Positions 1,983-61,858 of a DNA stretch of 64,000 bases are shown here, piece by piece. Source of the stretch: Malassezia furfur (Eukaryota); assembly GCA_052055015.1 (NCBI GenBank), contig JBQJIT010000020.1. One strand, written 5' to 3'. Each line of letters starts with the position of its first letter. The stretch's first letter is position 1. The notes under the pieces were generated by a model. That model saw only the letters and a program-made list of their open reading frames with translations, made no database searches and was not told where the DNA came from. The translations under genes were made by a program, and so were the position numbers.

Positions 1983-2981
1983 GCGCCCACGTGCGCACCG
2001 ATGGCTTGCGCCGCGCCGTGCGCGAGCAGCTTGTGCACATGTGCCGTAGGGTGGTACAGGTCAAAGAAAAAGTAGCGATTCGGCTCGGCACACTCGTGCC
2101 GCTTCACGCCCGCAGCACGCTCGAGCTTTTGCGTGCCGACGAGGCACGCGTCGCGCACGTTGTGCACGCCGTAGCGCGTCGGGTGGTCCAAGATGCGCGC
2201 CTCCAGCGCCGCCACGTCCACCAGCGTCACGTTCGCCGCGCCGTCGTGCGCCCACATGCGCAGCGCCGCATTGACCCGGTGCGTAAAGCGCGTCGTGTTG
2301 GTGCGCGTCGCCGCGTCCGCGTAATCCCGCGCGTACGGCGTAGACTGCATCGGGCTCAGCGTCGGCACCACCACATGACGCGCGCCGTGCTGCTGCAGCC
2401 TCGCGACGTCGCGCTGCAACGCACGCACCACGTCGTGCGCCAGCTCCGTCACATTGCGCTCCGCACTCAGCCCAAAAAACGCGTCGTTCGAGCCACCCGA
2501 CACAATGTACAGCGCGTCCGCGTCGGCACACTCGTCGACGTGCGCAAGGTAGCGCGACACCTGCCCGCGCACATCGGGCACGGGCAGCGTCGAGTTGTAG
2601 CCAGAGTAGCCGCGCGCGATGCGGTTGTCGGTCGTTGCGCTGCCGTACGCATAGTCGTCAACGTGCGACACGTTCAGCAGGCCCGCGAGCTGCTCGGGCC
2701 ACGTCAGTCCGTTGCTAAAGCGGCCGCTGCGGTCAGAAGGCGCGGCACACCGCCCACGCACTCATAGTATGCCTGGTCCGCCGGCCACGTCCGGTTCGAC
2801 AACAGGTACGTCCCATTGCCCTGCGTCAGCCGCACCCACGCACATTGTCCACGAGCGAGTCACCGAACACAACAACCCGCGAGTAGGGCACAGACACGTC
2901 GTGTGCCGCTGCAAACGGCACCTGCAACGCCCCGCTCACGCACGCCGCGACGAGCGCCAGCCCGGACCAGCGCAGCACCAT
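1979..2981 (-). CDS. Secreted GDSL/SGNH lipase-esterase
   Basis: ATG 2981 followed by a hydrophobic signal peptide ([18 protein letters not shown]). Motifs [25 protein letters not shown] and DLYHP. Introns 2821-2843 (23 nt) and 2727-2761 (35 nt) join the exons in frame. Confidence 0.88.
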
Positions 2982-3021
2982 GGAGGGAAAAAAAGAAGGA
3001 TGCACACCTATTTGTACAATG

Positions 3022-3488
3022 CTACACGGCAGAGCGGCGCACCCCAGCCAGGCGGTCCATCACCGTGCCCACGACCGGCATGGACAGCAACTGGCCGATG
3101 CCGGGCACCTGCCGCAAAAAGTTGAGGATCACCGGGAAAAAGTCGCTGCGCGTCAGCGGCGCACCACCTACCCAAACAGGTTCAAGAACCCGATCGTCTC
3201 GACCAACATCCCAAGGAACGTCAGCCGCAGAAACACAAGCACCATGCCCGTGAAGAAGCACAACGTCCCGCGGATTTTTTGCTTCCGCGCGAAGAACGCG
3301 AGCGTGCGCTGGGGCCCAATGAGCATCGCAATCCCCGCGACGAACAGGACATTGCCGAGCGCGAGCAGCGTCGCATCAAAAAACAGCACCACACCCAGAA
3401 ACAGAAAAAAGACCCCGCCCGAGACCAGGCCGACGCCAATCTCTGCACGTTAGCACACGCACGCACTCTGCTGATCACTGAGCCACAT
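3022..3488 (-). CDS. GOT1: Golgi transport protein Got1
   Basis: Spliced product MWLSDQQKIGVGLVSGG...FFDATLLALGNVLF...GFLNLFGDFFPVILNFLRQVPGIG. Two introns of 24 and 26 nt. Confidence 0.9.
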
Positions 3489-3525
3489 CGCCGTCGGGTC
3501 GACGTGTCGAGAACATATTTCCACA

Positions 3526-4778
3526 TCACATCACGCGTCGCGCACGCGCCGACGCAATGGGGTGCGTGTCGCTCACCACCACCTTGCCGGGGGGATAGGG
3601 CGACACAGCATTGGCAAACGTTGCAAATGCGCTGCGTCAGCCTCGTTCACATACTTGGCCGTCGGAAGCGGCTCCTCCGCGAACCACGGGTGCTGCAGCG
3701 CCTGCGCCGCGGTGCACCGCCGTGCGGGGTCGTACTGCAGCAACTTGTCCAGTAGATCGTAGCCCGCCGAGGTGCCTGCACGGTTTGTGTACCATTGGTA
3801 CAGGGTCTTCGGGATCGCGTCACCACGGCGCAGTGCATGCCACGTTGCGTAGTCGGGCAGCGCGTCGAGCATCGGCCAACGCTCGCGCGTCGGCGTGCCG
3901 AGAATGTCGACAATCTTGCCGAGCTGATTGCTGTGTGAGGGCGCGGCGCATACGTACGTCTGCAGTGGCATGGCCTTCACCTTGGAGCTCATGCGTATCT
4001 CCTCGCCTTTGAACATCGGGCGCAGCGCGATCAGCTCGCCCCAGATGCACCCGACTGCCCATAGATCGATCGCTGGGGTGTAGTGCCGCGCGCCAAGAAG
4101 CAGCTCGGGTGCACGGTACCAAATCGTGACGACGACCATGTCGCTCGCGTGCAACGATACGAGTGGGTCGTAATACACGCGCGCGAGGCCCAGGTCGCCG
4201 ATCTTGACGACGCCGCGCGCAGTCATCAAAATGTTGGCCGGTTTCAAGTCGCGGTGCATCACCCAATTTTCGTGCAAATACTGCACGCCGTTGAGCACCT
4301 GCCATAGCAGCGACTTGATCATTGCGCCACTGATGGGCGTGCGTAGCACCGTGAGGTGGTGGTGGATGATTTGCAGAAAGTCGTGCTCGACGTACTCGTA
4401 TACCAGAAAGATGGCATTCTCCTCGAGGAGCACCTCGCGGAGCCACACGACGTTAATGTGCCGCAGCTCGCGATTCAGGCCGATCTCGCGAATCGCGCTC
4501 TGACTGATGCCGGTAAAGTTCGTCGCGTTCCCCTCGCGATCTGGCTTGAACTTTTTGATCGCATAGACTCGCGGCTCGCGCACCACGCTGTTGGGCGGCA
4601 CCAATTCCTGCGCCTTGTACACGCGACCGTACGTCCCCGAATTGAGAAAGCCCATCACACGGTAGCGTGCCAGGACGGGCGTACGCTGTGCATTTCGTCG
4701 CGCGCGATACGCGCGCATAATGTCCGCAGCCGATGCCGACGCGGGCACCGGCACCGACGCCGCGCCGTCTTGGGGCAT
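3526..4778 (-). CDS. SSN3: Mediator kinase Cdk8/Ssn3
   Basis: SGTYGRVYKA, YAIKKFKPDREG, GISQSAIREI, HRDLKPANI, KIGDLGLAR, VVVTIWYRAPELLLGARHYTPAID. Introns 3931-3957 (27 nt) and 3632-3654 (23 nt). The start could instead be the next Met (MRAYRARR). Confidence 0.92.
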
Positions 4779-4814
4779 CGAGCGCACAGACAGCCTCCAC
4801 CTCCTTCTGCTACG

Positions 4815-5849
4815 ATGTCGGGGGGGTTCTCGATCGTGGACGCTTTCCACAATGCGCTGCGCGAAGACGACGAGCTGCCGCACCCCATCGCCGCAATCTT
4901 CGCGCTGAGCGAGATGATTGGCACGTCCCAGGCGGAGACCACGTCGGAGCTGATGGAGAGCATTAAGCGCGCCTCGGAGGAGCTGAAGAACAGCCTGCCA
5001 AATCCCATCCCGGCCTCGGCGGGCCTCGAACTGTTCATGCGCTTCGTCACAACAAAGAACTGGGCGGGTGGTGTACGTGTTCCTACTCACGCAGGACTTT
5101 GAAACGCACAAACAGAACTTGATCACCACCGCGCTCGAGTTTGCACACAACACCGTGCCGAGTTGTCGCGAGCGGATTACGGCGCTGCTCGTGCCGTTCA
5201 TCAAGGACGACACGGTGATCCTCACGCATGCCTACTCGCGCGTCGTGATGCAGGTGCTGCTCACTGCAGTCAAGACGCACCACAAGCGCATCAGCGTGTA
5301 CGTCACGGAAAGTCGGCCTTCCGAGCATGGGTACGTTGTTTGGCCGCCTGACCCAGCCTGCGCACCTACCATGTGCTGTCCGAAGCGGGCATCCCGTGCA
5401 CTGTGGTGCTCGACTCGGCCGTCGGCTACATCATCCACAAGGTCGACATGTGTCTGATCGGCGCCGAGGGCGTCGCCGAGTCTGGTGGCCTGTTCAATGC
5501 GATCGGCAGCTACCAGCTCGGCGTGATTGCCAAGGCGGCATGCAAGCCTGTGTTTGCCGCCGCAGAGAGGTGTGTTTCCCCGACTTACGCCAGTTTCAAG
5601 TTCCTGCGCATGTTCCCCCTGTCGCAGTACGATGTGCCGCTCTCGCACAAGATGCTACCCTTCCCGACCAAGGCCGAGATGGAGAAGCACGTCGAGGCAC
5701 AGGAAAGCATGACCCCGGCGATGGAGGCCCTCAACCCGTCGTTCGACTATACCCTGCCGGAGCTCGTGACGTTCATTGTGAGCGACATCGGGATCCTGAC
5801 GCCGTCGGGTGTCTCGGACGCGCTGCTCGCCGTGTACGGCGGCGCATAG
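4815..5849 (+). CDS. GCN3: Translation initiation factor eIF2B alpha subunit
   Basis: AGLELFMRFVT, ILTHAYSRVV, VYVTESRP, IGAEGVAESGG, AAESFKFLRMFPLSQYD, LTPSGVSD. Introns 5073-5094, 5331-5356 and 5570-5593. Confidence 0.93.
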
Positions 5850-5896
5850 ATGCATCCATAGCGACCTCGCCTCTATGTGACTATGATGGTGCACGC

Positions 5897-8368
5897 TCAG
5901 CGGCGTCCCCCCTTTTTACCACCGCGCGCACTCGGCTTGCTCGGTCTGCTCGGCTTGCTTGCGCCGCCCTTAAACTTGCTCCGTGCGCTGCTCATGTCGC
6001 GCCCGAACGCGCCGCCCTTGTCGCTAGAGCGTAGTTCGGTAGAGATCTTGCGCCGCTTGGGTTTGCTCGGCTTGGCCTTGTACTTGGGCTCGTTCACGCC
6101 GAGCTCCTTGGGGCGCTGCGCACGCTTCGCCGCGCGGATACTTGCGTCGATCTCGCGCGAGTTGTTCTCCTTGGCATCCTCCTCGCGCATGAGTTTGAGT
6201 CGCTTTTGCCGCCGCGACAAGCCCGCAAAGCGGTCCTTCTCCTTTGCTTTGCGCTTCTCGGCCGCACGTGCCGCGTCCATCTTGGCGACGTATTCCTCGC
6301 GCGAGGCGCCCTTCGCCTCCGCCTTGTCCTTCTCACTCTGGAACCAGGTGCGAGCGGGGCGCGAGTAGATCTCGTCCTGGTGCGCGAGCATGTTTTCGCT
6401 CTTTTGCATCTGCATCTCGGCCTGGCGCAGCGCGCGCTCTTCCTTCTCCTCGGCAATCACCTCCTCGATGTCCGACTTGAGCGCATCGATGGCCGTGCTC
6501 ATCTTTTGCACCGCCTCGGCCGGAACCAGCCGGTGCTTAACCTGCTCCGGCGGGGTGCGTTTCAGCACCGCCTTAAGCAGGCGGCGGTCCGCCTCGCCCA
6601 CGAGCGTCACCGAGCGGCCCTGGCGCCCGGCACGCGCCGTACGACCGACACGGTGCAGGTAGGGCTCGAGCTGTGCCGGCATATCGTAGTTGATCACGGT
6701 CTGCACACCGCGAATGTCGATACCACGACTCGCGAGGTCGGTTGCCAGCAAAAAGTCCACTTTGCGGTCGCGGAAGTTGCTGAGCGACTGCAACCGCTGC
6801 TCCTGAGACAAATCGCCGTGCAACTCAGCGGCGGAAAGGCCCAGCAGACCAAAGATGATCTTGAGCTGGTGCGCCAATCGCTTGCTGCGCACAAAGATAA
6901 TGACCTGGTCCCGGAAGGTGCGCATGCACAGCGCCAGCAGCAACGCCGCCCGCTGCGCATCCTCGGCGGCCTTGCGCTCCGCCGCCGAGCCGGTCGTCGG
7001 CGCACGCACGCGCACAAACTCTTGCGTAAGTTTGGCCGCTGTCGAGCGCTTCGGGTCAACAAATAGGCGCACAGGCTGCCGCAGACTCAGGCGTACGAGC
7101 TGATCGACGTCGTCGGTCATCGTCGCCGAGAAGAGCATCGTTTGCCGCTGTTGGGGGCACGAGCGGACAATCTCGTTGAGTTGGTCCTCGAACCCATCCT
7201 CTAACATACGGTCGGCCTCGTCCATGACGAGGATCTCGATGTCGTCCAGCCCGAACGACGAGCTGTTTTGCACGTGGTCAATCAGGCGACCGGGCGTCGC
7301 AATGATAATGTCGGGCCGCAGCTTCAGCTCGGCCTCCTGCGCCTTGACAGACAGACCACCGACACACAGACAGAAGCGCACCTGCATGTACTGTGCCAGA
7401 GCCATGCCAACGCTGTGGCACTGGATCGCCAACTCGCGCGTCGGGCACAGGATCACCACACGCGACTTGGCGTCCTCAACGCCCTTTTGCCTGTACGACA
7501 AACGCTCCAAGATCGGGATCAGGAATGCTGCCGTCTTACCACTGCCCGTCACGGCGCCAGCCACAATGTCCTTGCCGGCCAGCGCAATGGGGATCGTGCG
7601 CGACTGAATCGGCGTGGGTTTTTGGAAATTCATCGCGCTCAGCGCACGAAGTAGCGGGCGGTTGAGACGCAGCGCAGAGAAAGAGGCCGTAGGTGCCTCA
7701 TTGGACTGCTCTTCGGCCGCAAAGTACTGCGCCTTGCGCTCGGCATCGGCGTCTTCTTCGTCATCGCTATCATCGTCTTCCTCATCCTCCGATTCAGGCG
7801 CCTCTTCGCTGTCCTCCTCGTCACTGCTCCCCTCGTCGTCCTGGAGCGGATCGGCCTCGCTTTCTTCTTCTTCTTCATCGTCGCTGGCTTGCTTGGCACG
7901 CGCACCGGTACCGAAGCCTTCGCCCTCGCTGCTTTCACTCTCATAGTCGGGCACATCGTCTTCGCCTTCATCCTCCTCCTCGTTCTCCTCCTCGTCAAGC
8001 TCAGGCAGTCGTGGCTTTACGTCCGCACGACGCCGCTCAATGATATCGTCAACCGTGAGTCGCGACGCCTCAGCACTATTCGCTCCGTTCGCGCGCGCCA
8101 CATGGAAGTTCCAGTCCTGCGGGTTGTTTTCGTTAGCGCCGTCCTCAAATTCAAACTCAGCGCCCATCTCGAGCGCCTCGTCATCGTTCTGGCTCGGCTT
8201 TCCGCTGTCCACAACCTTTTCCCGAGCATTGATGCTGGCTTTGGTCCCTTTCTTCTTAGGCACCACCTCTTCCTCCTGTACAGGTTCCTCTGGGACCTCG
8301 TCGTCAGAATCCAGCGTCATGACAAAGTCGTCGCGCTTGGCGCGCGGCTCGCGCGCTTTCGACACCAT
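5897..8368 (-). CDS. DRS1: DEAD-box RNA helicase Drs1/DDX27 (60S biogenesis)
   Basis: Acidic N-terminus, GAVTGSGKTAAF, PTRELA, DEAD, SAT, HRVGRTARAG and the Drs1-type C-terminal IYSRPARTWFQSE. Likely ATG at 8368. Confidence 0.92.
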   Translation of the reverse strand: MVSKAREPRAKRDDFVMTLDSDDEVPEEPVQEEEVVPKKKGTKASINAREKVVDSGKPSQNDDEALEMGAEFEFEDGANENNPQDWNFHVARANGANSAEASRLTVDDIIERRRADVKPRLPELDEEENEEEDEGEDDVPDYESESSEGEGFGTGARAKQASDDEEEEESEADPLQDDEGSSDEEDSEEAPESEDEEDDDSDDEEDADAERKAQYFAAEEQSNEAPTASFSALRLNRPLLRALSAMNFQKPTPIQSRTIPIALAGKDIVAGAVTGSGKTAAFLIPILERLSYRQKGVEDAKSRVVILCPTRELAIQCHSVGMALAQYMQVRFCLCVGGLSVKAQEAELKLRPDIIIATPGRLIDHVQNSSSFGLDDIEILVMDEADRMLEDGFEDQLNEIVRSCPQQRQTMLFSATMTDDVDQLVRLSLRQPVRLFVDPKRSTAAKLTQEFVRVRAPTTGSAAERKAAEDAQRAALLLALCMRTFRDQVIIFVRSKRLAHQLKIIFGLLGLSAAELHGDLSQEQRLQSLSNFRDRKVDFLLATDLASRGIDIRGVQTVINYDMPAQLEPYLHRVGRTARAGRQGRSVTLVGEADRRLLKAVLKRTPPEQVKHRLVPAEAVQKMSTAIDALKSDIEEVIAEEKEERALRQAEMQMQKSENMLAHQDEIYSRPARTWFQSEKDKAEAKGASREEYVAKMDAARAAEKRKAKEKDRFAGLSRRQKRLKLMREEDAKENNSREIDASIRAAKRAQRPKELGVNEPKYKAKPSKPKRRKISTELRSSDKGGAFGRDMSSARSKFKGGASKPSRPSKPSARGGKKGGRR

Positions 8369-8512
8369 CGCTGCAAGGCGACTCCTCCACGCGCCCAAAA
8401 AAAATGTGGACGAAGCCATCACGTGGCGATCGGGTGCCGGGTCGATCTGGAGGACCCGGCGGGTTGCTGCAGGTACGGTCTTCGATCGTAGTCGTCTGAC
8501 TCTAACCCCAGC

Positions 8513-10045
8513 ATGACCGATCTGGGCGCAACTTCGACGTCCCCGCCAAACTCAGCGGCTTCAGCCCCACGAAGGTTTGGGCAGATGTTGCGGAGATACA
8601 GCGTCGGTCAAAATACGTCGCAAATATCCACTTCTCCGCTTGGGGATGCCCCAGTGGCCCACGGCACCAGCCCCCCCACATCGCCCGTGCGGCCGCCCGC
8701 GCGCCGTTCGTCTGAAGGTCAGAGCAGCTCATCATCGCTGCCGCTCGGCGTGAAGTTGGCGCCGCTGCGTGCGGCGGCTGCCTCAGTGTTCGGCTCGAAC
8801 CGAAATACCATCAACAGCGATGCCTCGCAGTCGGCCTCGGCGACCAGCAGCTCGCCGACACCATCGCACCCTTTGCAGGATTCGCACAGCGAGCAAAGTG
8901 CTTCGTTGCCGGCTTCGGCGGGTCCAACACACAAGCTGCGTCTGGTGCCGTTCTTGGACATGACGCGCTCACTGCTGTTCGTCCCCACCGAAATTGCCCT
9001 GCGTGAAAATGGGCACGCGGTCCAATTTGGCCGCTTCACAGAGCGCAGGCGCACAGATACCCAGGCAGACATTGACACCACGGCGCCAGCCGTCGAGGTT
9101 TCCATGGCCGAGCCCCTCCCCCCCGCACTGGCCGAGGACCAGGCGGCGACTGCCGCACGGACGTCGGCAGCGACAGTGAACCGTCAGCAAACACGCATCA
9201 ACTTCAAAAGCAAGGTGGTGAGCCGGCTTCATGCCGAGATGTGGTGCGAGTCGGGCGGTAAGGTGTACATCCGTGACACCCGCTCCAGTAGCGGCACGTT
9301 TTTGAACCACCTGCGCCTATCGCCACCCGGCACCCTCAGCCGGCCCTTTGCGCTGAAGGACGGCGATGTGCTCCAGTTCGGGATTGACTATCAGGGTGGT
9401 GTGCAAGAGCTGTATCGCTGCATCAAGCTGCGCATCGAGCTGGACCACGACACGCAACTGCAACCGACGGCGTACGGCGCCAATATGCTCCGCCAACTGC
9501 AATCCATGCAGCCGGTGGCCGAAGCCGCCGGGTCAGACGCGCCGAAGATCGGGATCGTGCCGCCACCAGCCGACGATGCAGCGCCGACGCCCGCCGTACA
9601 GCGCACCTCCCGCGCAAGCCTCGCAGAATGCTGCATCTGCCTCTTCAAAATCAAAGTTTGCCAGGCACTTTTCATCGCACCATGCTCGCACATGTTCCAC
9701 TATAAATGCATCCGTCCGATCCTCACTCTGCATCATCCGGGTTTCTCGTGTCCGCTGTGCCGCGTGTTTGTCAACCTCGACGACGACGTCGAGATTGAGG
9801 AGGAAGAAGAGGAGGCGGTGGACCACCTGGCGATCGCCGGCGCACGTCCGTCACACACAGGCGGCGCTGGGACGCCACTCTCGAATGCGGCCTCAGAGCA
9901 CACTGAAGATACTTCGGACTCCATTGGCGAGGTGCACTCGGCACCGACCTCACCACTACATACCTCGGTTGGCGACATGCCAGCCAACACGCAACCGCTG
10001 GACGCAATCGCCGAGCAGGATAGTCCGGCACTAAGACCATCGTAG
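8513..10045 (+). CDS. DMA1: FHA + RING-H2 E3 ubiquitin ligase (Dma1/Chfr family)
   Basis: FHA motifs FGR, FKSKVVSRLHAE, RDTRSSSGTFLNH and LQFGIDYQGG. RING CCICL...APCSHMFHYKCI...CPLCR. Confidence 0.88.
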   Translation: MTDLGATSTSPPNSAASAPRRFGQMLRRYSVGQNTSQISTSPLGDAPVAHGTSPPTSPVRPPARRSSEGQSSSSSLPLGVKLAPLRAAAASVFGSNRNTINSDASQSASATSSSPTPSHPLQDSHSEQSASLPASAGPTHKLRLVPFLDMTRSLLFVPTEIALRENGHAVQFGRFTERRRTDTQADIDTTAPAVEVSMAEPLPPALAEDQAATAARTSAATVNRQQTRINFKSKVVSRLHAEMWCESGGKVYIRDTRSSSGTFLNHLRLSPPGTLSRPFALKDGDVLQFGIDYQGGVQELYRCIKLRIELDHDTQLQPTAYGANMLRQLQSMQPVAEAAGSDAPKIGIVPPPADDAAPTPAVQRTSRASLAECCICLFKIKVCQALFIAPCSHMFHYKCIRPILTLHHPGFSCPLCRVFVNLDDDVEIEEEEEEAVDHLAIAGARPSHTGGAGTPLSNAASEHTEDTSDSIGEVHSAPTSPLHTSVGDMPANTQPLDAIAEQDSPALRPS

Positions 10046-10123
10046 GCATATACGACGCGACTACACCGCAGCGCGGGTACGGCGTCCCTGATGACAATGT
10101 ATACCATCCGACTCGTCTACGGC

Positions 10124-14682
<4,559 letters not shown>

Positions 14683-15767
14683 TTAGGTCTGCCATAGGTG
14701 CGCTTGAAGCCACGCAAGCGACGATTGCGACAAATTGATCGCAGGGTCCAGCGCTGAAAATGGGAGCTCAGACTGCGGAAGCTGATCGTGTTGGTGCATC
14801 GCCAGCGCCGCGTACGACAGGTAGGAATGCAGCACGTCGGGGTGGTGGTCAGGCACCTTGGCAATCCCGCCCATGGGCGACTGTGCCGACAGCAGGAAGG
14901 CAACATCGGACGCTGCGTCAATGGCCGCATGGCACCCCAGCATCATCGCCGTCGCGCCGCACCAGAACGAGTAGCACGTATCGGCCGTCTTCTCGACACG
15001 GCCTTGGAAACCGGACAGTGGCACCTGCCGTGACAAAATCCAACGCTCCAGCTTTGTACGGTCGTTTAGCACGTCAAGCCGCTGCGCTAGCGTCAATGCA
15101 CCCACGACACAGTACGTCGATCCTGCATGCGACTCAAGCCCAGGCTCCTGTGCAAACGCCCCCTCATAGTTCTGGCAGCGCCTGATGTACTCAATTGCTT
15201 GGTTCATGTCTAGCATGGACCAGTCGTTGAACATGTAGGCGACGGCAAATGCACAATAGGTGAAACGCACATCGTGCTCGGTCCATCCGGGAGTCGAGAG
15301 GAAACTGCCGTCGGGCTGCTGCAAGTTGCGCACATGCATCTTGACGGCGTCCTTGTCCACGCGCGCAAAATCGTCGCGTAGGATAGCAAGGGCCAGCAGT
15401 GCAGTATAGGTCATGGGTAGATCCCCCTGGGTCAGTCGGCCGCACACACCATGTTACCGGCTGGCGAGCCGCGGAATCCGCCACCCTGCGACGCCGCTGC
15501 ATAAGTTTATCATGACTTACATAGTTGTTGAGCATAGATCCAGTCGATATAAGCCACCCGCTCCTTTTCAGTGATCACGTCGCTGTGCTGCAACAGGTCG
15601 AGTCCGCCAAGACAGAAGTAGGCAAGGGTCATCCTGCATCAGTCCATCGCATACCTCTGATTGTCAGCACTGGTGTAGGGCCTTTGCAGCATGGACATGT
15701 GCAGCGACCAGAACTTGACATGGCGCTTGACGGACAACGCCGCCAGCGGCGCGTCCTTCGCGGTCAT
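14683..15767 (-). CDS. CDC43: Geranylgeranyltransferase type I beta subunit
   Basis: Spliced N-terminus KRHVKFW...ADNQRMTLAYFCLGGLDLL, GGFRGSP, DVRFTYCA, ESHAGSTYC, GFQGRVEKTADTCYSFW, PDVLHSY. Introns 15634-15654, 15497-15520 and 15427-15449. Confidence 0.9.
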
Positions 15768-15987
15768 GCTGCTGGTCCAAGCTCCTCAACACCTCCACTC
15801 TGCTTGGCCAGCACGTGGTGCGCTGGGTCCCCACCGAAACCGAGTGCGCCAGCACGGCCGACACAGCCGCGCTGCATGCACGCTGCCCAAACCGGTGGTA
15901 CAGCACAGCAGTGCATCACAGCGCCAAGGTCGTCGCAGATGTGGGGTGCCCACCAGAATGAGGGTCTATCCATCGCTAATGAATTAA

Positions 15988-19080: not shown

Positions 19081-19275
19081 ATATACAACGGGCCGAGGCC
19101 CGGCAAGTCAACTTGGGTTGAATGAAAGTGGGAATACGGGGACAAAGTCGGATACGTAGACGACCGCTTCCCTGCTCCAGTAGCTGGTCTCCTGGACATG
19201 TAATGACCAAAGTGAAGGAACATGAACCAAACCCCAGCTTGCGATGCTCTCTATGTACATACCAGCAGGCCCTCA

Positions 19276-42477: not shown

Positions 42478-42478
42478 T

Positions 42479-46271: not shown

Positions 46272-46503
46272 TCTGTCGAATTTCGTGAATGAAAGTGACT
46301 AGGATGACGGGCTAGCCTAATTCAGATAAGATTCGCGAGGGTCCGATAAACTCCACAAAAGCGACGCCCTTGATAAGATTAAATGCTGACAGGAACTGCA
46401 CGCAGAGAGTGCCAGGCGCGGAGGCGACGAATATGTGATGACGTACACACCGAGATAGGATGACGCCGTGTGCTTTCGCTAAGCATATCTACCATATGTT
46501 TTA

Positions 46504-47788: not shown

Positions 47789-47820
<32 letters not shown>

Positions 47821-48105
47821 GTCGACCGGGCCGGTGATCTCGACACGGCGGTCGCGCAGACCCGGCGCAGGCTTAGCACCCATCCAGGTGGGGTCCTCAC
47901 GGATGTGGGCCGTCTGCGGCAGGAAGTCGAGCTGCTTGCCAGCGTCCAGCTCAACCTGGCGCGCCTCACGGGCACGCAGTCGCTCCTGGCGCGTGCTCTC
48001 GAAGATACGGTGCAGCGTCGCCACGAACTTGATCGCCTCGGGGGTGAGGATCTTGGCGTGCTCGCCGAGCACAGGGGCAAGGATACGAACACCTTCAACC
48101 GACAT
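46504..48105 (-). CDS. MLS1: Malate synthase (glyoxylate cycle), canonical copy
   Basis: [51 protein letters not shown]-terminal SKI (PTS1-like). Confidence 0.96.
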
Positions 48106-48150
48106 GATGTGTAGAGGTAGACGTTAAACCGCTCACACCGCTCTATTTCC

Positions 48151-50278: not shown

Positions 50279-53200
50279 ATGTTTGTGCGTACCGACTGCG
50301 ATAACATGTTATGATGCTAACACGCCTACAGTGGCGTTTTGGCGTGGCTCCGGTGTCGACGCTGACCACGTTGCTGGAAAAACCTGATATTACTGTCGAG
50401 GATGTGTTGAACGAGCCCGACCTCTTGCAGGAATGCAAGTCGAATAACCACAAACTCGTTGCATATCTGCAACAGCCCGAGGTCCTCCAGAGGCTGCTTG
50501 ACTACGTTATTGGCGCTGTGGAAGTGGAAGATGTCTCAGACAGTGCCAACCAGGAGAAGATTGCCTTCAAGTATGTCGCGGGTTATCGTCGCTTATACTA
50601 ACCACAGATATCCCTACTTTGCTTCCGAGGTGCTTAGCAGCGAGATACCCGAGATTTCCCTGGTTCTGTTCCAAAACGCACAGGCGCTGCTTGCGCCCTT
50701 CTGGGACAACTTCCTGTCCACGCCGTCGGACGCCTTTGAGCGGCCCATACCGCTGCACGCTCATCCTCTCACCTCGGCGACCTACGTTAAGTCAGAGGCA
50801 GGAAATGCGGGCGACGAGAACGAGGAAAAGAAGCCGGAGGAGAAATCGACCGGCGAAACTGTCAAGTACTCGGGCCGTTCGCACGGTCCTGGGCATACGG
50901 TGCTGGCGGGCTACTGGTCCAAGGTGAACATGGCGCTGCTCGAAAAACACCCGCAGGAGATGCTGGCATTTGTACAGACGCTGCCGACCGCGGTCGAGGG
51001 ACTCGTGTCCCACTTTGAGACGTCGTCGGTGGTCGACCTGCTGTTCCGCCTGATCCAGACGGAGGATTCCGTGCCGGATGCGGGCATCATCCAGTGGTTT
51101 GCTGACAACGACCTGATTACGCGTATCGTGTCGCTCCTGTCGCCGCATGTCTCGACCGAGCAGCACAAGGCGGCGGCTGAGTTCCTCAAGGCGATCATCT
51201 CGCTGTCGGCACCCTCGCCATCGGCGCTTAACCAAATCACCATGCAGGAGACGTTTGGCGGCCCCGGTGAGATGCTCATGGGTGCCGGCGGTGTCAACAA
51301 CCTGCTGGTGCGCGAGCTCGCGAGCGAGGAAACGGTGAACAAGATGACCTACTTTATGTTCGACTTTAAGCCAACATTTAAACCGTTTGCGAGCGGCAGC
51401 GGCTCCGAGGGTGCAGCGTCGCGCAAGGCATCGATGCGCGGCGCCTTGGACTCGTCGCTGCCCGCGCTGCGCGAGTCGCTCTCTTCCGACGAATCGGCTG
51501 TTGAGGAAGAGGACGATGACGACGACGAAGAGTGGCAGGTACGGCTCAGTTTCAAGAACCGCCGCATGTCGCTTGCGCAAGGGATCAACGGTGGCCGGAG
51601 CCCCGCGCACCGCGACTCGACAGCCACTGTGCGCCCGTCGGATTTGCGGCGCGACAGCATTGTGCGGCAGGGCCCGTCACAGGCGGCCATCACCTCGTCC
51701 TTCACCAACTGTGCCGGGGTGTTTATCGAGCTGATCCGCAAGAACAACAGCGACTACTTTGAACAGCATCTGTTTCACACGCTGCGCAACTATCTGCTCC
51801 TCCGACAGCAGGAGGTTTCTGGGAAGCGCCAGCAAGAGCGCCTCGCGCAAAAGAAGGCCGAGGGAGAGTCGGACAAGCCGGACCTGACGCTGGAAGATCT
51901 TCCATTTGAGGACGACGACGACGTCGAGGGCATGGAAGAAGCCATGGCCGAGGTCGCCGAAAAGATGGGCATCGTCCACCTGGGCCCACTGCTCCACATT
52001 CTCTCCAGCAGGATACCCGATTTGCAAGAGATGATGAAAAGCCCCAAGCTGGCAGTGCCGTTTGTCTCCACGACGCTGGGCCAGATTGAGCCGCTGACGC
52101 AAACGCGCTGCTGCATCGCGGAGCTGTATGCCGAGATGCTTCACTGTTCCAACATGGTCCTGCTTAATCGCGAACCCAATGTCGGGCCGCAGTACTCGCC
52201 TACCGGCACGCTGCTCGGCGGCATCGAGGGCCTCCAGCGGCTTGCACGTGCGCTCCAGGGCGACGACGGCGGACCGCTGTTCGACTCGAACGAGTCGAAT
52301 AGCAACGCGGCGCAGCCCAGCATGTCCCAGCCCGAGCTGCATGTTGAGTGCGAGGATGACGATGCGCCGCCGCCCACGGCACCAACGACTTCCGTATCCA
52401 GCGACCGGCTGGCTGCGCCACAGCCAGGAAGCACGAGCGGGCACAGCAGCGAGACCGGGTCGTCCGACTCGGAGGCCGACCAGGCCACGGATGACGAGGA
52501 CGCCAAGAGCATTGCGTCGGCGCTCTCAAGCATGTCGCTGGCCGACCTGACGGCGCAGTTTGCGAGTCGGCCACCGAGCGTCGACGACGATCATCTATAT
52601 GCAACGGCTGGCGACTACCTGAAAAAGCAGTTTTACGACTTCCAGGTGGTGCCGACGCTCATTGAGCTCTTCCTGAACCACCCGTGGAACAACTTCCTGC
52701 ACAACGTCGTTTACGATATCGTCCAGCAACTCTTCAACGGCGATATGGACGCCGGCATCAACAAGAAGCTCACCATTGCCACGTTCGAGCAGGCCGGGCT
52801 CATCGACGCCATTCTCGAGGGCTCGCGGCGCAACCAGGAGTCAAGCAGCCAGCTGCGCCACATCCGTCTCGCGTTCATGGGCCATCTCAACCTGATCGCC
52901 GAAGAGGTCATCAAGCTCCTCGAAAAGTACCCCGCAGCCGTGGGCGAAAAGGTGAAGAACTGCTTCCCCCAACCCGACTGGGACACATTTGTGAACGACG
53001 AGCTGCGTGTGTCGCGTGTCAAGGAGGCCATGCCGCTCGCCGGTGGCCGACCCAACGCCCACACCAGCAACGAGCAGAGCTGGGGCAAGGACTCAGACAA
53101 CTGGTACGCGGACTCCGAAGGGAACAACACCTTTGCACGCTACCTCTCGTCACAGATGCGCAACGAGTCCACTGAAGACGAGGCCCAGGAGAACGACATC

Positions 53201-55465: not shown

Positions 55466-55555
55466 GACTTTATAACTCAGTTGGTTAGAGTACCACGTTA
55501 ACAACGTGGAAACGGAATTCCGTGGAAGTCCCCGGTTCGAGCCCGGGTAAAGTCA
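55466..55555 (+). tRNA. tRNA-Val(AAC) with a 16-nt intron (55504-55519)
   Basis: Acceptor stem GACTTTA/TAAAGTC, D arm ACTC/GAGT, anticodon stem CCACG/CGTGG with AAC at 55500-55502, T arm CCCGG-TTCGAGC-CCGGG, discriminator A. Confidence 0.9.
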
Positions 55556-55558
55556 CTC

Positions 55559-55564: not shown

Positions 55565-55576
55565 GCGTGGATTCAC

Positions 55577-58337
55577 CTATTTTGGAGCGCGCGCCTCGGC
55601 GAACACGTGTTTCCAAGCCAAGAGAACTTGGAGGGTATCACGATCGGATGGATCGTCCTGGACTTGTGGATGCTTTTCTTGAGCATGAATCCATTCATAG
55701 AGATTGTTAGAGATCACATTCACGGCCTCTTTTGCATAGTCTTGTGGGCGCGCTACGCCGGTGTCCAGCAGCCATTCGGCATACTCCAGTTTGCTTTTCC
55801 GGCACTGCTCATTGGGGAGCGGGAATGTGGCCGAGCGCGAAAAGAGATGTTGAGCCCAAAGGAACCGAGGCATTGCGAAGGCTTGCAGCGCGACCGCAGG
55901 GTTGTGCAATTTGTCCGAGGGAAGGAACAGGATATTCCGCAGGTTTTGCAAGAAGATATATGCCCCTCCGCAGTCTTCCAGTGCAGGGGCAGTCTCGTTT
56001 GGCGGAGAGATACAGACCAGTATTTGTTGCAAGGACGTCTCTAGCATCGATATGTCCCGCATGATCTGAATCTTTTCTTCCTCCTCGTGCAGTCGAATTA
56101 ATGTCACGAATAGAAGGAAAGCCCGCAGAACAAATTGTACAAGATCTGTCACCATAGTCTTGACCTCGTCCGAGACCGTGATGCGGTTCAAGATGCCGTT
56201 TCGGAGAGAAGTGAGTCGTGCGTGCAGCTCCAGCATGTAGGTGCTCACAGGAGATTTGTTCGGATGACCCGCCGGTGCCGCTCTTGCCTTCTCGAGCTTG
56301 AACCGGGACATACGTGCCAGGACGCCCAACAACTCGGCTTGGACCGACCGGCACAGTGGATCCATCAGATCCTGACGGAGCATGCGTCGTGCTGTTTGCT
56401 CCCATTCCAACGCCTGCTCGGAAAGAGCGTGGAGAGACGCGGAATCGGTTCGCAGGCTCTGTAAAAAGGCGACCAGTGCGCTTATCACAGCCGCATTTTG
56501 AAGTTGCTGACGAGGCGGTTGTGGCTTTTGGAGCATGTACACCATGTCGTCGCGCGAAATTTGATCACGCAAGTCAGCCAACAAAGCGACCATCGCTGAA
56601 GAAAGCGTCTCGCCCATCCTGCGCGTCAGCCGCTCATCGGCGTTACATGCACTAGACTCTGTCGTAGCGATGCGCATCACAACGCAGGTCAGCGCAGGCA
56701 TCTCTGATGCGCTACTAGGGTTGGACAACACGGAGTGCAAAGATTGCCGTCTCTCCCCCAGCTCCTGGGTCACAGTGCGCAAATAAGACTGCTCAAGCTC
56801 ACCCAGCAAAGAGAGCACCGACTTGGGCCAATCTTCGAAGTTGGTCGGTACAGACGACTCGTCCGTCAACAGTGCAATTCTTGCAAAAAGTTCCTTGAAG
56901 GTAGTCAGCAAACGAGGGTAGGTCGAAATCACAATGAACCGCCAAAAGTCGGACTCCTCAACGCATTCATGCACAACCATGCGAAAGTTGCGCGCAAAGG
57001 ACGTCCACAACAGCTCTGTCGGTTTTTCGCGCAGTTGCTTCGTAAGTGCGTCAACGTACATGCATCAACGACTCCAGGAGCGTCGCATCCGACCTGCTGG
57101 TATGCTTGGAACGCAGTACATACTCGAGCAGGTTGATCTTGGTAAATATAGGTGCCATTTCGTCAACGACCAACGAGTGCAGCTGCGCCCATACGCCTGA
57201 AGTCCATTGCTGCAGAAGCTGTGCATCCTCGGCCACCATTGCACGGCCCGGAAGTTGGTAGTGCATCGAAAGCAGCGCCTTGAATGAAAACGAAGGCGGC
57301 TGGGTTTTTCCGAGCCCCTTGCCAATGGTATACAGATCCAAGGCCGAGCGGATGCGTTCAAGCAAAACGGCGTTGAGGTCTTCAATAAAACTCTCGACCA
57401 AGTGGGCCAGCTGGTGGCGATGCTCGGCGGCCTGAAGTGCAAGACCAAGCAGCACGGGCGACAAGTGTCGAATGCCGTACAATAGCGTATTTTCGACTTG
57501 CTCCTGAAGCAGCTGCGACGCAACCGGCAGCAGCGCCAAGTGAGGCGCGAGAAAGTCGAGCTGCGCGCAGTCCTCACGCAGTTTTTTGTCCAGCTCGTCC
57601 TCGTCTTTCCATGGCTCCAGAAGCTGCTCCAAATTCTCCAGAGTGATGCAGGTAGACAGAATGTGGGTAGCACGTTGCTGCATCGCTTTGGGATCCTGTG
57701 AGGAGCTCGTGGCATCTGCGCCAAGAATGGTATTCATCTGAGACGACAGGCGCATGCACAAAGCAACCATCTCTTGTGCATGCAATACGAGCTCTTCTCT
57801 CTCCTGCAATGCTTCGAGGCGCGTCTGGTTTTCTTCGATGCGTCGCAGCGAGGACGTCACATTCGAGCGCACACTGCGTCAGTTCCCGCCCACATACGAT
57901 TTCACGCGATGATCGAGTTTGCTAAACTCTTGCAAATTATCCGACACAGCATCGCGGAGGGGCGCTACATTGGTGACGCGCTCCAAGAACTGCCCCGAAT
58001 GCAAGGTGATCTGGTGTGAGATGCGCACCTACCAAACCGTGAATATCTTGGTCGACCTCGGTGATGGACACATTTAGGCGACTCAGTGCCACGCGCATAT
58101 CTGTGTCGACCGAGGCGACACGATTCGAGACGCCAAGCGGATTCTCGGATGCCGAGGCGGGTTCCTGGGGCCGTGCCGGCGAACCCAGAAACTGGCTGGC
58201 ATACGTCTGTGCATCAAAGTCATCGCGCAGAAACGCGGCGTGATCTGTGTAAGCAAAATCCACCTACCAAATGAGCCAGATGCGGGCTTTGCAGGTCCCG
58301 AGCTTTTCTCGGAGAGGGCCGCGCTCGTGTCGGCCAT
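55577..58337 (-). CDS. COG5: Conserved oligomeric Golgi complex subunit 5
   Basis: Four introns (23, 22, 24, 22 nt) join the fragments. FLRDDFDAQTYASQ, LSRLNVSITEVDQDIH, LLWTSF, TYPRLL, FLLFVTLIR...IMRDISMLE. Confidence 0.75.
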
Positions 58338-58517: not shown

Positions 58518-59021
58518 CTAGGCCTGCTTCGACCGGCTTTCAATCTCGCGCTGGATCAGCTCCTCCTGCCACTTCTGGATTTCCCTCTCGCTGGCAACGA
58601 TCCCGCGCTGGCCTAGCTCACGCATGGCGCGGTTACGAATTAGGTTGTCGTGGGTACGCTTCTCGTACTCAAACCGCTGCAGCGCAGTCTCAGCCGCAAA
58701 GACGAGCCCAATCGAAGCCGCTGCGTGAGTACAGTTAACGTGCCTGACATAGTCAAGAACGCTTTGAACGCAAGCGTTTGGCGCCTGTGGTGTCAGTTGA
58801 CCGACGTACCGGAACGAAGGGAAGATGTGGTGCGACGCAAAGACACCGGTGAAGCCGACAAAACCCCACACCAAGGCTCCGCGAATGCCCGCACGCTACA
58901 TGAGTCACGTATGATCATTACACACCACCTGGAGATCGTGCGCGTTTTTGATGTTCTCTTTGTCGAATTGCCTTCGCTCACGGTTAGTGAGTAAGCCAGA
59001 CGACGACCCCTTCGTGTCCAT
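58518..59021 (-). CDS. Small two-TM membrane protein, Rcf2 N-terminal/Rcf3-like (probably mitochondrial)
   Basis: Spliced AGIRGALVWGFVGFTGVFASHHIFPSFRRQTLAFKAFLTMSAASIGLVFAAETALQRFE. Three introns, the last of them GC-AG. Confidence 0.6.
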
Positions 59022-59121
59022 CGCGTTGAACGTAGATCCGATCGGAGAAGCAATTAAGGGCCGGAAGCACGAATGTGGAGAAAAATGCGCCGAAAAAATT
59101 CTCCCTGAAGCCTGCATCATT

Positions 59122-59981
59122 ATGGGCAGCTCAAAGAGCAGTGCGAGTTCGAGCAGCGTGGTGGTTTCGCCAGGTAGGTGAGCTGGTTCTGATACAGACG
59201 CTCTGCGACTGGTGCACGCCTTTCTCTATACACACGCGAAGCCGAAACTTGCGTCCAAGCTCGCGGACCAGTACCCTAAGCTGCATTTGGAGGAAGATGC
59301 GAGCCGGGCGGAGGAGCTCTCGAATGCGCTCGTGCACACGGTGACGAGTGCGCTGGCGGTCCCGAACTCCGAAATTTCGCGTATTTTGAGCGGGGAGAAG
59401 AAGAAGGCGCGTAAGTCGGAGGAAAAGGAGTCCAAGAAATCGAAGAAGGCCAAGGTGCGTGTGCGTCATTGACCACAGAAGAATGACGACGTACTTGCAC
59501 CCGTGGTCGAAGAACCCGACACGGCAAACGAGTCTGCCATGCAGGTAGATGTCACGGAAGCGTCTGCGCCAGCGTCTGCGCCTGAGGCAGTGACCGAGGT
59601 TTCGGTGACCGAGTCGCAGCCGTCGGGCGAGACGGTTGTCACAAAGACCGTACAAACCGAGGCGCCTAAGCCCTCCAAGAAAACGAAAACACCCGGAGAG
59701 CGCTTCCAACGGGTCAAGTCAGACCAAGCGACGTTCCTGGATGACCGTTTGCGGGATATGAGTTATGCTGCAAAGGTACGTGATGCGCTGATACAGTCCG
59801 GTGCGGGCGACTACGGCGCGCGTGCAAATGCCGATCTGATCGTTACGCAGGGCAAGGCGTTCACGAAAGAAAAGAACAAAAAGAAGCGCGGGAGCTATCG
59901 CGGCGGGATCATTGACCAGGGTTCACAGTACGTGTATACACTCACACCAGCTCCATCAAATTCACGTACGACGATGAGTAA
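59122..59981 (+). CDS. SRP40: Nucleolar protein Srp40/Nopp140-like
   Basis: C-terminal SRP40 domain FQRVK...[36 protein letters not shown] after removing four introns (24, 24, 21, 23 nt). Confidence 0.88.
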
Positions 59982-59987
59982 GCTGCG

Positions 59988-61858
59988 TTATGCGGTGCCC
60001 TCAGTGCGTTCGCCGTGGGCGACCGCCTCGTCCCACATGCCGATCTCGAGCCGGGTGGCCCTGTGTGAGTAGTTGGCACGTACGTATTCCATATCTCTTG
60101 GAGATGGTCCGCCTCTTCCACCGAAGGCATCACGCGTGCGGCACAGCGCTCAAGCATGTCCAGGGTGGATCGCACTGCGCCCTGGAATTCGTCCCCGCCG
60201 TACTCGTCCAGCCAGGCCTCATAGCTGGGGTCAAGCGCGCTACTCGGGGTAGAGTGCTTCTGGCGCTGCTCCTTGAGCCAAAGGCCTACCTCGGCGTACC
60301 CAAACGCGCACGATGCGACTGACACGAGCAGGGGTAGAATGCCTTCGCGGGCCGTGTCCATCACGTAGCGTGTGTACGCCATGGTCGCGCGGCTCTCTTC
60401 GGTGCGCTCGAGTTCGTTGCGCGAAATTCCGACACGCTCGCACACCATGGCATGCACGTGTGTCTCATCAATGGCGGCCCGCGAAATGGTGAGGTAGTCG
60501 CGCAAATCATCTGGCGAGCACGTCGGATCGGACGCCGCGGCGGCCCACACACGGGCATAGTGCTTGAGGTACAGGTAGTCTTGCCGCATGAACCACACAA
60601 ACGCCGCTTTGGACAGCTTGCCATTGCACATGCGTGCCACAAACGGATGGCGCGTGTACAAGTGCCACAGATGCCACGAACGCGCAATGAGCCTGGTCGT
60701 GAGCGGCGCCGCACACCGCGCCGAGTGCTGAGGAATGCCGCGCGGCATGACGTGCGCGCCATGGTTGAGCGGGCCGGCGCCCTTGCCGAGGTCCTCGATG
60801 CTGTTCTGCAGCGCCTCTTGCAGAAACTGCAGGCCATGGGCCACGGCGATCCGCAGGGGACGTCCGTGCGCATGGGCCGCACAGATCGCGGACGACAGCG
60901 TACACCCCGTGCCGTGCGTCGCGCTGGTCGCGATGGTAGGTTTGATGAACACGGTCGTGTGCTGCGTCGCGGATTCGTACAGTACATCTACTGTGTAGGA
61001 GGGTGGACCGACATCGGGCAGGTTGCGTCGCAGCATACGCACGTCGTTGGGTCCGTGCACAAGAAACACGTCGAGTTGCGGCGCATGGAAAGCAGAGGCA
61101 CCGAGCACCTGCGCAATGTCGCTGCGCTCGTTGGGCTCGACGCGTACCGAGAGCGCTACCGTGCCGTGTGCATTGCGCCTCGTCGACACGCGCGTGTCGC
61201 TAAAGCCGGCGATTGCTTCGTCGTCGGTGTACAGGGGGAGCGACACGCCCGCATCCTGGAGCGCCTCTTGCAGATCGCTGTGCGTGATGGGAACATGCCC
61301 GCCCTTGACGAGCACGTTGGCGACGCCCAGCTTCGCAATGGACTGCGCCGAAGCCATCATCTTGGCAAGGTCAGTCGAGGCCGCCGGCGGCGTTTCGCCG
61401 GCGCTCTGGAGTATTATCTCGGTCTCAGGTAGGTTGGGGGTAAGCAGTGTACAGAGGGGAAAGAGTCCCTCGATCAGCGCGCCAACTGCGTCGCGCTCGA
61501 GCAGCAGTGAGCCCGAGGTCGAGACCATCACGGGGTCCAGCACGACCGGCGCACCGTGCTGCTTCTGCGCCATGGCGATGCACTGGATGACTTCGCGGAC
61601 GATGGGTGCATTGGCGAGCATTCCAATCTTGATCGCGTCAATGCGCACATCCGTCGCAACCGAGTCGAACTGCGCGCGCACGAATGCCGGATCCGGGGTG
61701 TGGACGCTTTGTACGCCCTGGGTGTTTTGGGCGGTGAGCGCGGTGAGCACCGACATGCCATACGTCTGCAGAGCAAGAAACGTCTTCAAATCCGCCTGGA
61801 TTCCGGCGCCGCCACCAGAGTCGGAGCCCGCTATGGTCAACGTGCGCGGAAGCGCCAT
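59988..61858 (-). CDS. THI20: HMP/HMP-P kinase fused to TenA thiaminase II
   Basis: [51 protein letters not shown]. TenA domain HPFV, QDYLYL, SCAFGY, and [10 protein letters not shown] after intron 60061-60083. Confidence 0.92.

Follow-up and report, generated by a model that had tools for sequence, protein, structure and literature searches.

Very short introns with an apparent 21-nt floor and a constrained putative branch-point layout in a 64-kb stretch of Malassezia nuclear DNA

A 64-kb stretch of Malassezia nuclear DNA (hereafter the window) harbors 55 curated introns in 22 genes, located between positions 2727 and 60083. Reading frames, homology, and motifs indicate that these segments are very probably real U2-type (GT-AG) spliceosomal introns, compacted almost to their bare splicing signals. 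The set comprises nine introns of 21 nucleotides (nt), eight of 22 nt, eight of 23 nt, ten of 24 nt, two of 25 nt, five of 26 nt, one of 27 nt, and three of 30 nt, with a tail that reaches 48 nt; the median is 24 nt and the mean is 26.0 nt. The original prediction for this DNA listed about 50 introns between 2727 and 60083, mostly of 21-27 nt, and curation within the same limits gave 55, of which 43 are 27 nt or shorter. It also held that no intron was shorter than 21 nt, which is borne out by the curated window set (0/55), as all shorter parses were rejected by frame, synteny, or homology. The segments show the features of U2-type introns, including GT-AG or GC-AG ends, an extended donor consensus, a YTNAY branch motif, and the restoration of frame and homology upon their removal.

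Introns were curated using three lines of evidence, namely syntenic DNA, proteins or Pfam profiles, and reading frames. The DNA of relatives was represented by four loci (L001-L004; 48% G+C) that were obtained from a metagenome scan with KRR1 and are collinear with window positions 560-20,450. Synteny alignments were attempted around 16 window introns and provided clear support for 13; the short flanks of two introns returned no orthologue by BLAST, and the alignment at 11802 was unclear. Orthologous proteins or Pfam continuity supported 16 more, bringing the introns with synteny, orthologue, or profile support to 29/55. Another 24 were supported by restoration of an open reading frame (ORF), and the remaining two by the motif. 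With the curated introns removed, every modelled gene forms a single complete ORF from ATG to stop.

The nine 21-nt introns had been predicted to share one layout, and all nine were found at their coordinates in the predicted form, in which the GT donor hexamer is followed by 6 nt, CTNA with its A at position 16, two nt, and CAG. The corresponding pattern, GTRNGY-N6-CTNA-NN-YAG, has 10 matches in the window compared to a mean of 0.21 in 100 dinucleotide shuffles, none of which reached 10 (0/100). The tenth exact match, 15427-15447, falls within an intron of 23 nt. A looser motif scan (donor, CTNA, and YAG) yielded 12, 7, 8, 12, 6, and 6 matches at lengths of 21 to 26 nt, respectively, where approximately 0.8-1.8 were expected at each length. 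A step test independent of gene models varied the spacer length from the donor hexamer to CTNA-NN-YAG, with 60 shuffles for comparison. No matches were obtained with spacers of 0-3 nt, one with 4 nt, two with 5 nt, and 10 with 6 nt (0.20 expected), followed by 5, 7, and 5 matches with 7, 8, and 9 nt. The three matches at 4-5 nt are all nested in longer introns that have frame or synteny support. A similar step was observed in the tail (spacers of 6-9 nt), where distances of 3 and 4 nt from the A to the end gave no matches and a distance of 5 nt gave 27 (0.63 expected).

Scans that dispensed with the motif or with the window were uninformative. A scan without motifs, for GT..AG pairs that connect open frames, showed no length signal over control dinucleotide pairs (60% G+C), and a motif scan of the AT-richer relatives was swamped by chance matches. 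When intron motifs were left out, Viterbi gene models called long introns that were spurious, along with antisense genes. With motifs, such models recovered most introns with wrong boundaries, including 59 vs. 26 nt at 5331 and 30 vs. 21 nt at 26625, and generated 13- and 14-nt artefacts at 58987 and 56789. These boundaries and artefacts were overruled because synteny, profile continuity, or the open COG5 frame contradicted them.

The putative branch adenosine was defined as the A of the last CTNA (or TTNA) of each intron. Assigned in this way by motif, it is located at position 16 in 11 introns, 17 in 10, 18 in 11, and 19 in 8, and the predicted rule that it falls at position 16 or later holds in 55/55. 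Measured from this A, the 3' end is 5 nt away in 30/55 introns, 6 nt in 10, and 7 nt in 7 (5-7 nt in 47/55), and it is never closer than 5 nt. This second, equally sharp minimum is an addition to the original prediction. The two separate minima, an A at position 16 and a 5-nt tail, together account for the floor of 21 nt (16 + 5). Furthermore, the 3' splice site is the first AG past the branch A in 55/55 introns.

The donor is strongly conserved, with G at position 1 (55/55), T at position 2 (54/55), A or G at +3 (55/55), G at position 5 (55/55), and T at position 6 (52/55), and 30/55 introns carry a G at +7. The most frequent hexamers are GTACGT (22), GTATGT (10), GTGCGT (8), and GTAGGT (7), in addition to others. 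Introns begin with GT in 54/55 cases and with GC in one (58721-58743), and all 55 end with AG; the acceptors are CAG in 47, TAG in 7, and AAG in one. The putative branch motif is CTNA in 53/55 and TTGA in 2/55, with C or T after the A in all 55. The resulting consensus can be written as G T A/G N G T, often followed by G, then a linker, R-C-T-N-A-Y, and N-Y-A-G. The absence of a polypyrimidine tract, which had also been predicted, was upheld, as the longest pyrimidine run is 2-4 nt in 45/55 introns and never exceeds 7 nt. Because there is no room for such a tract, the 3' splice site is most likely selected through proximity to the branch point.

A second donor-like GTRNGY hexamer occurs inside 13/55 introns, 2-11 nt past the used donor (e.g., 3443-3466, 59455-59478, and 2727-2761), often as part of tandem GTGCGT-like repeats. 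Eight nested donors would place the A at position 12-15, and none of these eight is supported by frame, synteny, or orthologues (0/8). The eight unused donors look like a natural experiment that favors a minimum distance. Nine shorter parses in sense orientation to genes were considered, and every one was rejected. Synteny ruled out 2821-2839 (19 nt), 3146-3164 (19 nt), and 3443-3462 (20 nt), each nested in a longer intron. The 19-nt parse 31650-31668 truncates the ORF. Frame ruled out 57874-57893 (20 nt), 58011-58028 (18 nt), and 59178-59197 (20 nt); for 58011-58028, the frame change requires a length of 1 modulo 3. The weakest exclusion concerns 59461-59478 (18 nt, in frame), where the M. 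furfur orthologue, itself an annotation, fits an intron of 24 nt. The 18-nt candidate 62443-62460 is exon, since it aligns without gaps to AP-3 beta structures.

Other candidates were also discarded. A match at 32253-32271 is antisense to a gene. The segment 7076-7096 (21 nt, with the A at position 10) is exon located inside an ungapped conserved helicase alignment, and 44945-44965 is exon inside an MS_C domain match that has no room for an insert.

The eight introns of the GDSL lipase, eIF2B-family, and RLI1/ABCE1 genes are each cleanly missing from at least one relative, and intron presence thus varies among close relatives. In the GDSL lipase gene (minus strand), the 23-nt intron 2821-2843 is precisely absent in L004, and the 35-nt intron 2727-2761 is precisely absent in L002 and L004, with a complete 314-amino-acid ORF restored. 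The eIF2B-family gene (plus strand) contains introns of 22 nt (5073-5094) and 26 nt (5331-5356), both precisely absent in L001, L002, and L004, and one of 24 nt (5570-5593) that is absent in L001 and L002 and measures 39 nt in L004; across the 26-nt intron, the IF-2B profile runs to 148 and resumes at 149. RLI1/ABCE1 (minus strand) has longer introns of 48 nt (17841-17888; absent in L002, 46 nt in L004, with a 606-amino-acid ORF restored), 37 nt (17732-17768; precisely absent in L002, 44 nt in L004), and 38 nt (17617-17654; precisely absent in L002, 54 nt in L004).

Five introns, all on the minus strand, have a counterpart of another length at the same site in relatives. These are the 24-nt (3443-3466) and 26-nt (3146-3171) introns of a GOT1-like gene (28 and 64 nt in L002 and L004 for the former, with a conserved exon end, and 29 and 60 nt for the latter), a 27-nt intron of a protein kinase gene (3931-3957; 25 and 51 nt), the 21-nt intron of KRR1 (11218-11238; 25 nt in each of L001, L002, and L004), and a 21-nt intron of a prenyltransferase beta gene (15634-15654; 26, 29, and 29 nt) that contains an in-frame stop. 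The kinase gene has a second intron of 23 nt (3632-3654), removal of which corrects a frameshift and restores the ORF. The other two prenyltransferase introns, 15497-15520 (24 nt, with an in-frame stop) and 15427-15449 (23 nt, frameshift corrected), are bridged by the Prenyltrans profile, as exon 2 covers positions 29-63, the 15-codon exon 3 covers 64-78, and exon 4 resumes at 79; the nested 21-nt parse of the latter breaks the frame. A 22-nt intron in an SNF2-family gene (11802-11823, plus strand) corrects a frameshift and restores a 1106-amino-acid ORF.

Reading through the KRR1 intron would add seven residues that have no counterpart in the annotated orthologues from three Malassezia species and a further two Ustilaginomycotina. 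Splicing at 11218 re-forms a conserved Pro codon across the junction, and the PDB alignment of KRR1 begins just past the intron. Two ORF-called KRR1 proteins contain 9-10 read-through residues. In one relative, KRR1 contains a 30-nt intron that is missing from the window and shows up as 10 inserted residues in the protein (P0009).

Orthologous introns in L001, L002, and L004 (n = 16) are 25-64 nt in length, with the A at position 18 or beyond and a tail of at least 6 nt, and at 7/9 shared sites the window intron is shorter than those of all relatives. Longer introns at the same sites, with unchanged signals, indicate that the extreme compaction is derived in the lineage of the window, as judged from these alignments.

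Evidence for the SGF29 and RRN6 introns (plus strand) was mainly derived from the M. brasiliensis protein MBRA1_001503 (P0121), a faulty annotation that fuses three neighbors, namely SGF29, a PNRC-motif gene, and RRN6; it was weighed as supporting evidence, short of proof. In SGF29, the 21-nt intron 26625-26645 contains an in-frame stop and coincides with a gap of exactly seven residues relative to P0121, and the 30-nt intron 27267-27296, which is in frame and without a stop, coincides with a gap of exactly 10 residues. Between these two, the 23-nt intron 27063-27085 corrects a frameshift and restores a 304-amino-acid ORF; here the P0121 model differs. A candidate 25-nt element, 26321-26345 (plus strand), was also noted upstream of the SGF29 start, with its only CTNA at position 11. 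RRN6 harbors three further 21-nt introns with gaps of exactly seven residues against P0121, including 29418-29438 and 30559-30579 (both in frame without a stop, the spliced model of the former aligning gap-free) and 29758-29778 (with an in-frame stop). Two 22-nt introns of RRN6 correct frameshifts, 29894-29915 restoring a 737-amino-acid ORF and 30692-30713 allowing the P0121 alignment to resume in the new frame. For the 21-nt, in-frame, stop-free intron 29192-29212, which has the exact motif, P0121 shares the acceptor and not the donor, which it places 93 nt upstream; the donor is thus assigned by the motif. The exact motif is also present at 29061-29081 (21 nt), upstream of the likely RRN6 start, where the fused P0121 model again shows a gap of exactly seven residues and there is no upstream in-frame ATG; this element is probably an intron of the 5' untranslated region (UTR).

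The SRP40/Nopp140-like gene (plus strand) contains four introns. The 24-nt intron 59174-59197 has an in-frame stop, its two exons are in the same frame, and a nested 20-nt parse is excluded. The second intron, 59455-59478 (24 nt, with a TTGAC branch motif), also has an in-frame stop, and the annotated M. furfur protein, with KKAK joined to KNDD, fits a length of 24 nt. The third, 59776-59796 (21 nt), is in frame without a stop and would encode a 7-residue insert that is missing from SRP40_C in 5/8 Malassezia orthologues, including the M. sympodialis protein curated with RNA-seq. The other three orthologues carry non-conserved inserts at the same spot, of 7 (M. furfur), 9 (M. equina), and 11 residues (Malassezia sp. 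CBS 17886); such unrelated inserts are the mark of untranslated introns that were read through by annotators. The 23-nt intron 59928-59950 corrects a frameshift, and the spliced C-terminus (..GSHSIKFTYDDE) matches the orthologues. Immediately downstream, on the minus strand, a 23-nt intron in a THI20-like gene (60061-60083) corrects a frameshift and restores a 615-amino-acid ORF. The same gene contains a 24-nt in-frame candidate motif match (60693-60716, minus strand) between its two domains.

COG5 (minus strand) has four introns, namely 58245-58267 (23 nt; frameshift corrected and 889-amino-acid ORF restored), 58011-58032 (22 nt; identified by the frame change noted above), 57874-57897 (24 nt, with an in-frame stop; the frame is lost with the nested 20-nt parse), and 57038-57059 (22 nt), which uses an AAG rather than a YAG acceptor. 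Across the last of these, the COG5_C profile covers 4-136 and then 143-186, the downstream match being weak (E = 0.0074). A small membrane-protein gene on the same strand contains a 30-nt intron with in-frame stops (58896-58925; 141-amino-acid ORF restored), a 25-nt intron (58785-58809), and a 23-nt GC-AG intron (58721-58743), the last being the sole parse under which the frame is preserved and the homologues align without gaps. The 41-nt exon freed between the latter two (..RQTLAFKAFLTMS..) corresponds to a 13-residue micro-exon that aligns with 9/9 homologues. Read-through of this gene gave no Pfam match.

DBR1, which encodes the lariat-debranching enzyme (38605-40166, plus strand), is the sole splicing-related gene in the window and appears ordinary by Pfam. 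It is itself interrupted by two micro-introns. The 24-nt intron after codon 2 (38611-38634) contains an in-frame stop, and splicing joins MR to IAVEGCSHGELD in a 503-amino-acid ORF. At the 26-nt intron (39881-39906), the DBR1 profile extends to 109 and continues at 121-138 in the shifted frame, with a weak downstream match (E = 0.005). The gene is relevant to the sequencing of lariats in a dbr1 mutant, which accompanied the original prediction.

The remaining introns occur in smaller or less characterized genes. A Dap1-like (cytochrome b5-like) gene on the plus strand has four introns that each correct a frameshift, of 25 nt (42028-42052; 115-amino-acid ORF restored), 31 nt (42142-42172), 34 nt (42212-42245; TTGAC branch motif), and 44 nt (42383-42426). 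A small Cys-rich gene on the minus strand has introns of 41 nt (42956-42996) and 26 nt (42693-42718), both correcting frameshifts, and of 24 nt with an in-frame stop (42537-42560); a 148-amino-acid ORF is restored. A small coiled-coil gene (minus strand) contains a 22-nt intron that corrects a frameshift (31788-31809) and a 26-nt intron (31650-31675), which together yield a 93-amino-acid ORF. In a metallo-beta-lactamase-fold gene (plus strand), a 30-nt intron with an in-frame stop (32083-32112) restores a 447-amino-acid ORF, and a 22-nt intron (32309-32330) corrects a frameshift, its downstream exon matching Lactamase_B. Both exons flanking a 24-nt intron with an in-frame stop (41198-41221, plus strand) match FA_desaturase in a fatty-acid desaturase gene, and a 37-nt intron in an SAPS-domain gene (50571-50607, plus strand) corrects a frameshift and restores a 1181-amino-acid ORF. 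Finally, an SPX-RING gene contains a 24-nt candidate intron (21502-21525, minus strand) that is in frame without a stop and was recognized by its motif; splicing would convert ..EYNKVCRHTYAQLKTLL.. to ..EYNKLKTLL... Pfam and PDB searches with the SPX N-terminus of this gene gave no result.

In-frame micro-introns are translated or otherwise misannotated in the public records P0123, P0128, P0129, P0004, P0009, and P0121. Stop-free in-frame micro-introns end up as coding sequence in public protein sets, and gene finders and read mappers applied to the Malassezia group need a minimum intron setting well below 21 nt.

In the mechanism proposed here, an intron would begin with a strong GTRNGY donor hexamer, continue through a linker no shorter than 6 nt, and end with an (R)CTNAY branch site and the first AG past the A, usually as N-YAG. 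If the adenosine of CTNAY is the real branch point, as the motif suggests, two lower limits would apply, with a minimum of 15 nt separating the first intron base from the branch A and a minimum of 5 nt between the A and the 3' end. The 15-nt spacing could accommodate the helix at the 5' splice site (positions 1-6), the U2 branch helix (approximately 5 nt upstream of the A), and approximately 4 free bases. The limit might then reflect the space needed to keep intact the 5' splice site helix, formed with U1 and later U6, and the U2 branch-site helix, with a short linker between them. The 5-nt tail may represent the shortest reach for docking of the AG in the second step, and the lack of a polypyrimidine tract suggests that 3' splice site choice would be independent of contact between U2AF and such a tract. 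This helix-plus-linker mechanism is plausible and draws on general knowledge of the spliceosome, which is one of several points that weigh against reading the window as a set of real introns at a geometric limit. Splicing and branch points were deduced from sequence. The sample consists of 55 introns from one 64-kb window, and the branch-position statistics hang on the last-CTNA/TTNA rule, though the step test is free of gene models. The evidence for 21502-21525 and for 29192-29212 is the motif, and 29061-29081 may be located in the 5' UTR. Moreover, the supporting proteins from M. brasiliensis and M. furfur come from annotation and have their own errors.

The sharpness of the floor could be a sampling effect, with rare introns of 18-20 nt elsewhere in the genome and an edge that is steep and not absolute. 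A set of 0/55 from one 64-kb window permits up to 5.3% shorter introns genome-wide at 95%, and the in-frame 18-nt parse 59461-59478 is excluded only by the annotated M. furfur protein. This explanation is nevertheless unlikely, given that nine introns measure exactly 21 nt and none 15-20 nt, that the step test rises from 0-2 matches (all nested) to 10 between spacers of 5 and 6 nt, and that all nine shorter sense-strand parses were rejected. It is quite improbable that some in-frame, stop-free elements of 21-30 nt are coding insertions, or segments whose optional retention yields two protein isoforms. Ten introns do leave the frame open if retained (those starting at 11218, 29061, 29192, 29418, 30559, 59776, 21502, 27267, 5570, and 3931), and public annotations translate some of them, such as that in M. 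furfur SRP40. Lengths divisible by 3 are found in 24/55 introns, compared to 14 and 17 in the other two classes, an excess that is statistically unconvincing at this sample size. On the other hand, the inserts are absent or differ in both length and sequence wherever orthologues can be aligned, relatives have same-site introns whose lengths are not multiples of 3 (25 nt for both KRR1 and the kinase gene), and the exact layout is expected by chance only 0.21 times.

For the origin of the limits themselves, it is possible, at somewhat less than even weight, that they are generic to fungal spliceosomes and involve no adaptation. Deletion bias would in that case have shrunk the introns to the footprint of early recognition by the U1 small nuclear ribonucleoprotein, BBP/SF1, and U2, rather than to the geometry of the catalytic core. 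The relatives share the donor and branch motifs and have longer introns at the same sites, such that length changed and signals did not; plain compaction to a functional limit fits this pattern as well as adaptation does. Branch points anchored at the 3' end without a polypyrimidine tract are also known in other lineages (PMC2483917). The present data, however, do not separate early recognition from catalysis. The original prediction pointed to a spliceosome specifically adapted to the 15-nt spacing between the 5' splice site and the branch point, which would involve lost or altered U2AF, SF1, U1 proteins, or small nuclear RNAs (snRNAs); this is a more doubtful explanation. The geometry is extreme for a fungus and its edge is sharp, and the authors of the Stentor study conjectured non-conserved regions in branching factors (PMC9505925). 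Yet the signal consensus is canonical, and DBR1 has the ordinary Pfam profile described above. A wider proposal, offered tentatively and with similar doubt, is that thousands of introns in this lineage are as short as a fungal spliceosome with full donor, branch, and YAG signals physically permits, that the 15-nt and 5-nt limits choose among tandem donors, and that lineage-specific changes in SF1/BBP, Mud2/U2AF, and step-1 factors accompany this state. If the introns do sit at a physical minimum, a transformable yeast would provide a natural system for measuring minimal spliceosome geometry; Malassezia is genetically manipulable (bioRxiv 10.1101/638429).

The window (60.5% G+C, zero N) is densely packed with housekeeping genes according to a Pfam scan of 133 long open frames. 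These include Sec24, KRR1, RLI1/ABCE1, coatomer beta, enolase, an M16 peptidase, DBR1, two malate synthases, thiolase, COG5, SRP40, and AP-3 beta. The closest named proteins to the window products are exclusively from Malassezia, with identities of 80% for KRR1 (M. yamatoensis), 81-89% for RRN6 (M. brasiliensis), and 88% for SRP40 (M. furfur). The species falls within the M. furfur group, although none of the named proteins is an exact match. The window is thus nuclear DNA of Malassezia (M. furfur/M. brasiliensis group), in agreement with the genus assumed in the original prediction. Malate synthase is encoded by two complete genes in tandem (44670-46298 and 46504-48123, both on the minus strand), with a weaker codon bias in the downstream copy. 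No snRNA genes were found in the window, where the Rfam match was one tRNA only. This tRNA-Val (anticodon AAC; 55466-55556, plus strand) is flanked by the thiolase gene and the 3' end of COG5, and its length of 91 nt could accommodate a tRNA intron.

Very short introns in Malassezia have already been published. In M. sympodialis, 5350 introns averaging 30 bp are distributed over 4493 genes, and RNA-seq supports 99% of them (PMC5389616), and M. restricta introns have a mean of 37.2 bp and a median of 30 bp (PMC9241646). A review refers to "very short introns" (PMC7426719), and the minimum intron length in Malassezia annotation has been set to 15-20 (PMC6473144); older annotations of M. globosa reported introns of 76-79 bp (PMC4634964). 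The window is more compact than M. sympodialis and M. restricta, with its median of 24 nt and mean of 26 nt against published means of 30-37 bp. The passages on introns in the accounts of these two species give no minimum, branch position, or layout, and full-text searching of a limited library, which does not cover figures, found no literature on a length floor or branch-point geometry of Malassezia introns. What the analysis usefully adds is the geometry and the annotation errors that it causes.

U12-type introns are marked by the donor (A/G)TATCCTT (ATATCC/GTATCC) and the branch motif TCCTTAAC. Like these, the window introns have strongly conserved donor and branch motifs and a branch point near the 3' end. 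Unlike them, the donors are GTRNGY, with none of the ATCC type, and the branch motif is CTNAY rather than TCCTTAAC; judged by these motifs, the window introns are not of the minor (U12) class. A closer resemblance is to the introns of Yarrowia lipolytica, Trichomonas vaginalis, and Giardia lamblia, in which the branch point is anchored beside the 3' splice site without a polypyrimidine tract (PMC2483917; Irimia and Roy, 2008). The shared features are the lack of this tract, a strong branch consensus (WCTRAYN in that class), and a near-fixed distance from the branch point to the AG. In contrast, the genomes of that class are intron-poor, their introns are longer (median of approximately 204 nt in Y. 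lipolytica), and only the 3' end is constrained (PMC2483917), whereas the window has 55 introns in 22 intron-bearing genes within 64 kb and both ends are constrained.

Ultra-short intron systems include those of Paramecium and the Bigelowiella nucleomorph. The window introns show the features of such a class, with a median below 30 nt, a narrow spread, and a sharp minimum at which nine introns are found. Together with ciliates, microsporidia, dicyemids, and myxozoans, they have a modal length below 30 nt, a narrow spread, and canonical GT-AG ends (PMC13644364; PMC9505925). According to a 2026 study of the shortest introns in animals, a limit of approximately 30 bp is broken by ciliates, Microsporidia, and Dicyemida, which it lists as the exceptions; the word Malassezia is absent from its text (PMC13644364). 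The introns of Stentor, at 15-16 nt, are spliced with a lariat turn of approximately 10 nt (PMC9505925; PMC13644364), which indicates that the limit in the window is lineage-specific rather than universal. Compared to Stentor, the window introns keep a full fungal-type CTNAY motif and have their floor at 21 nt.

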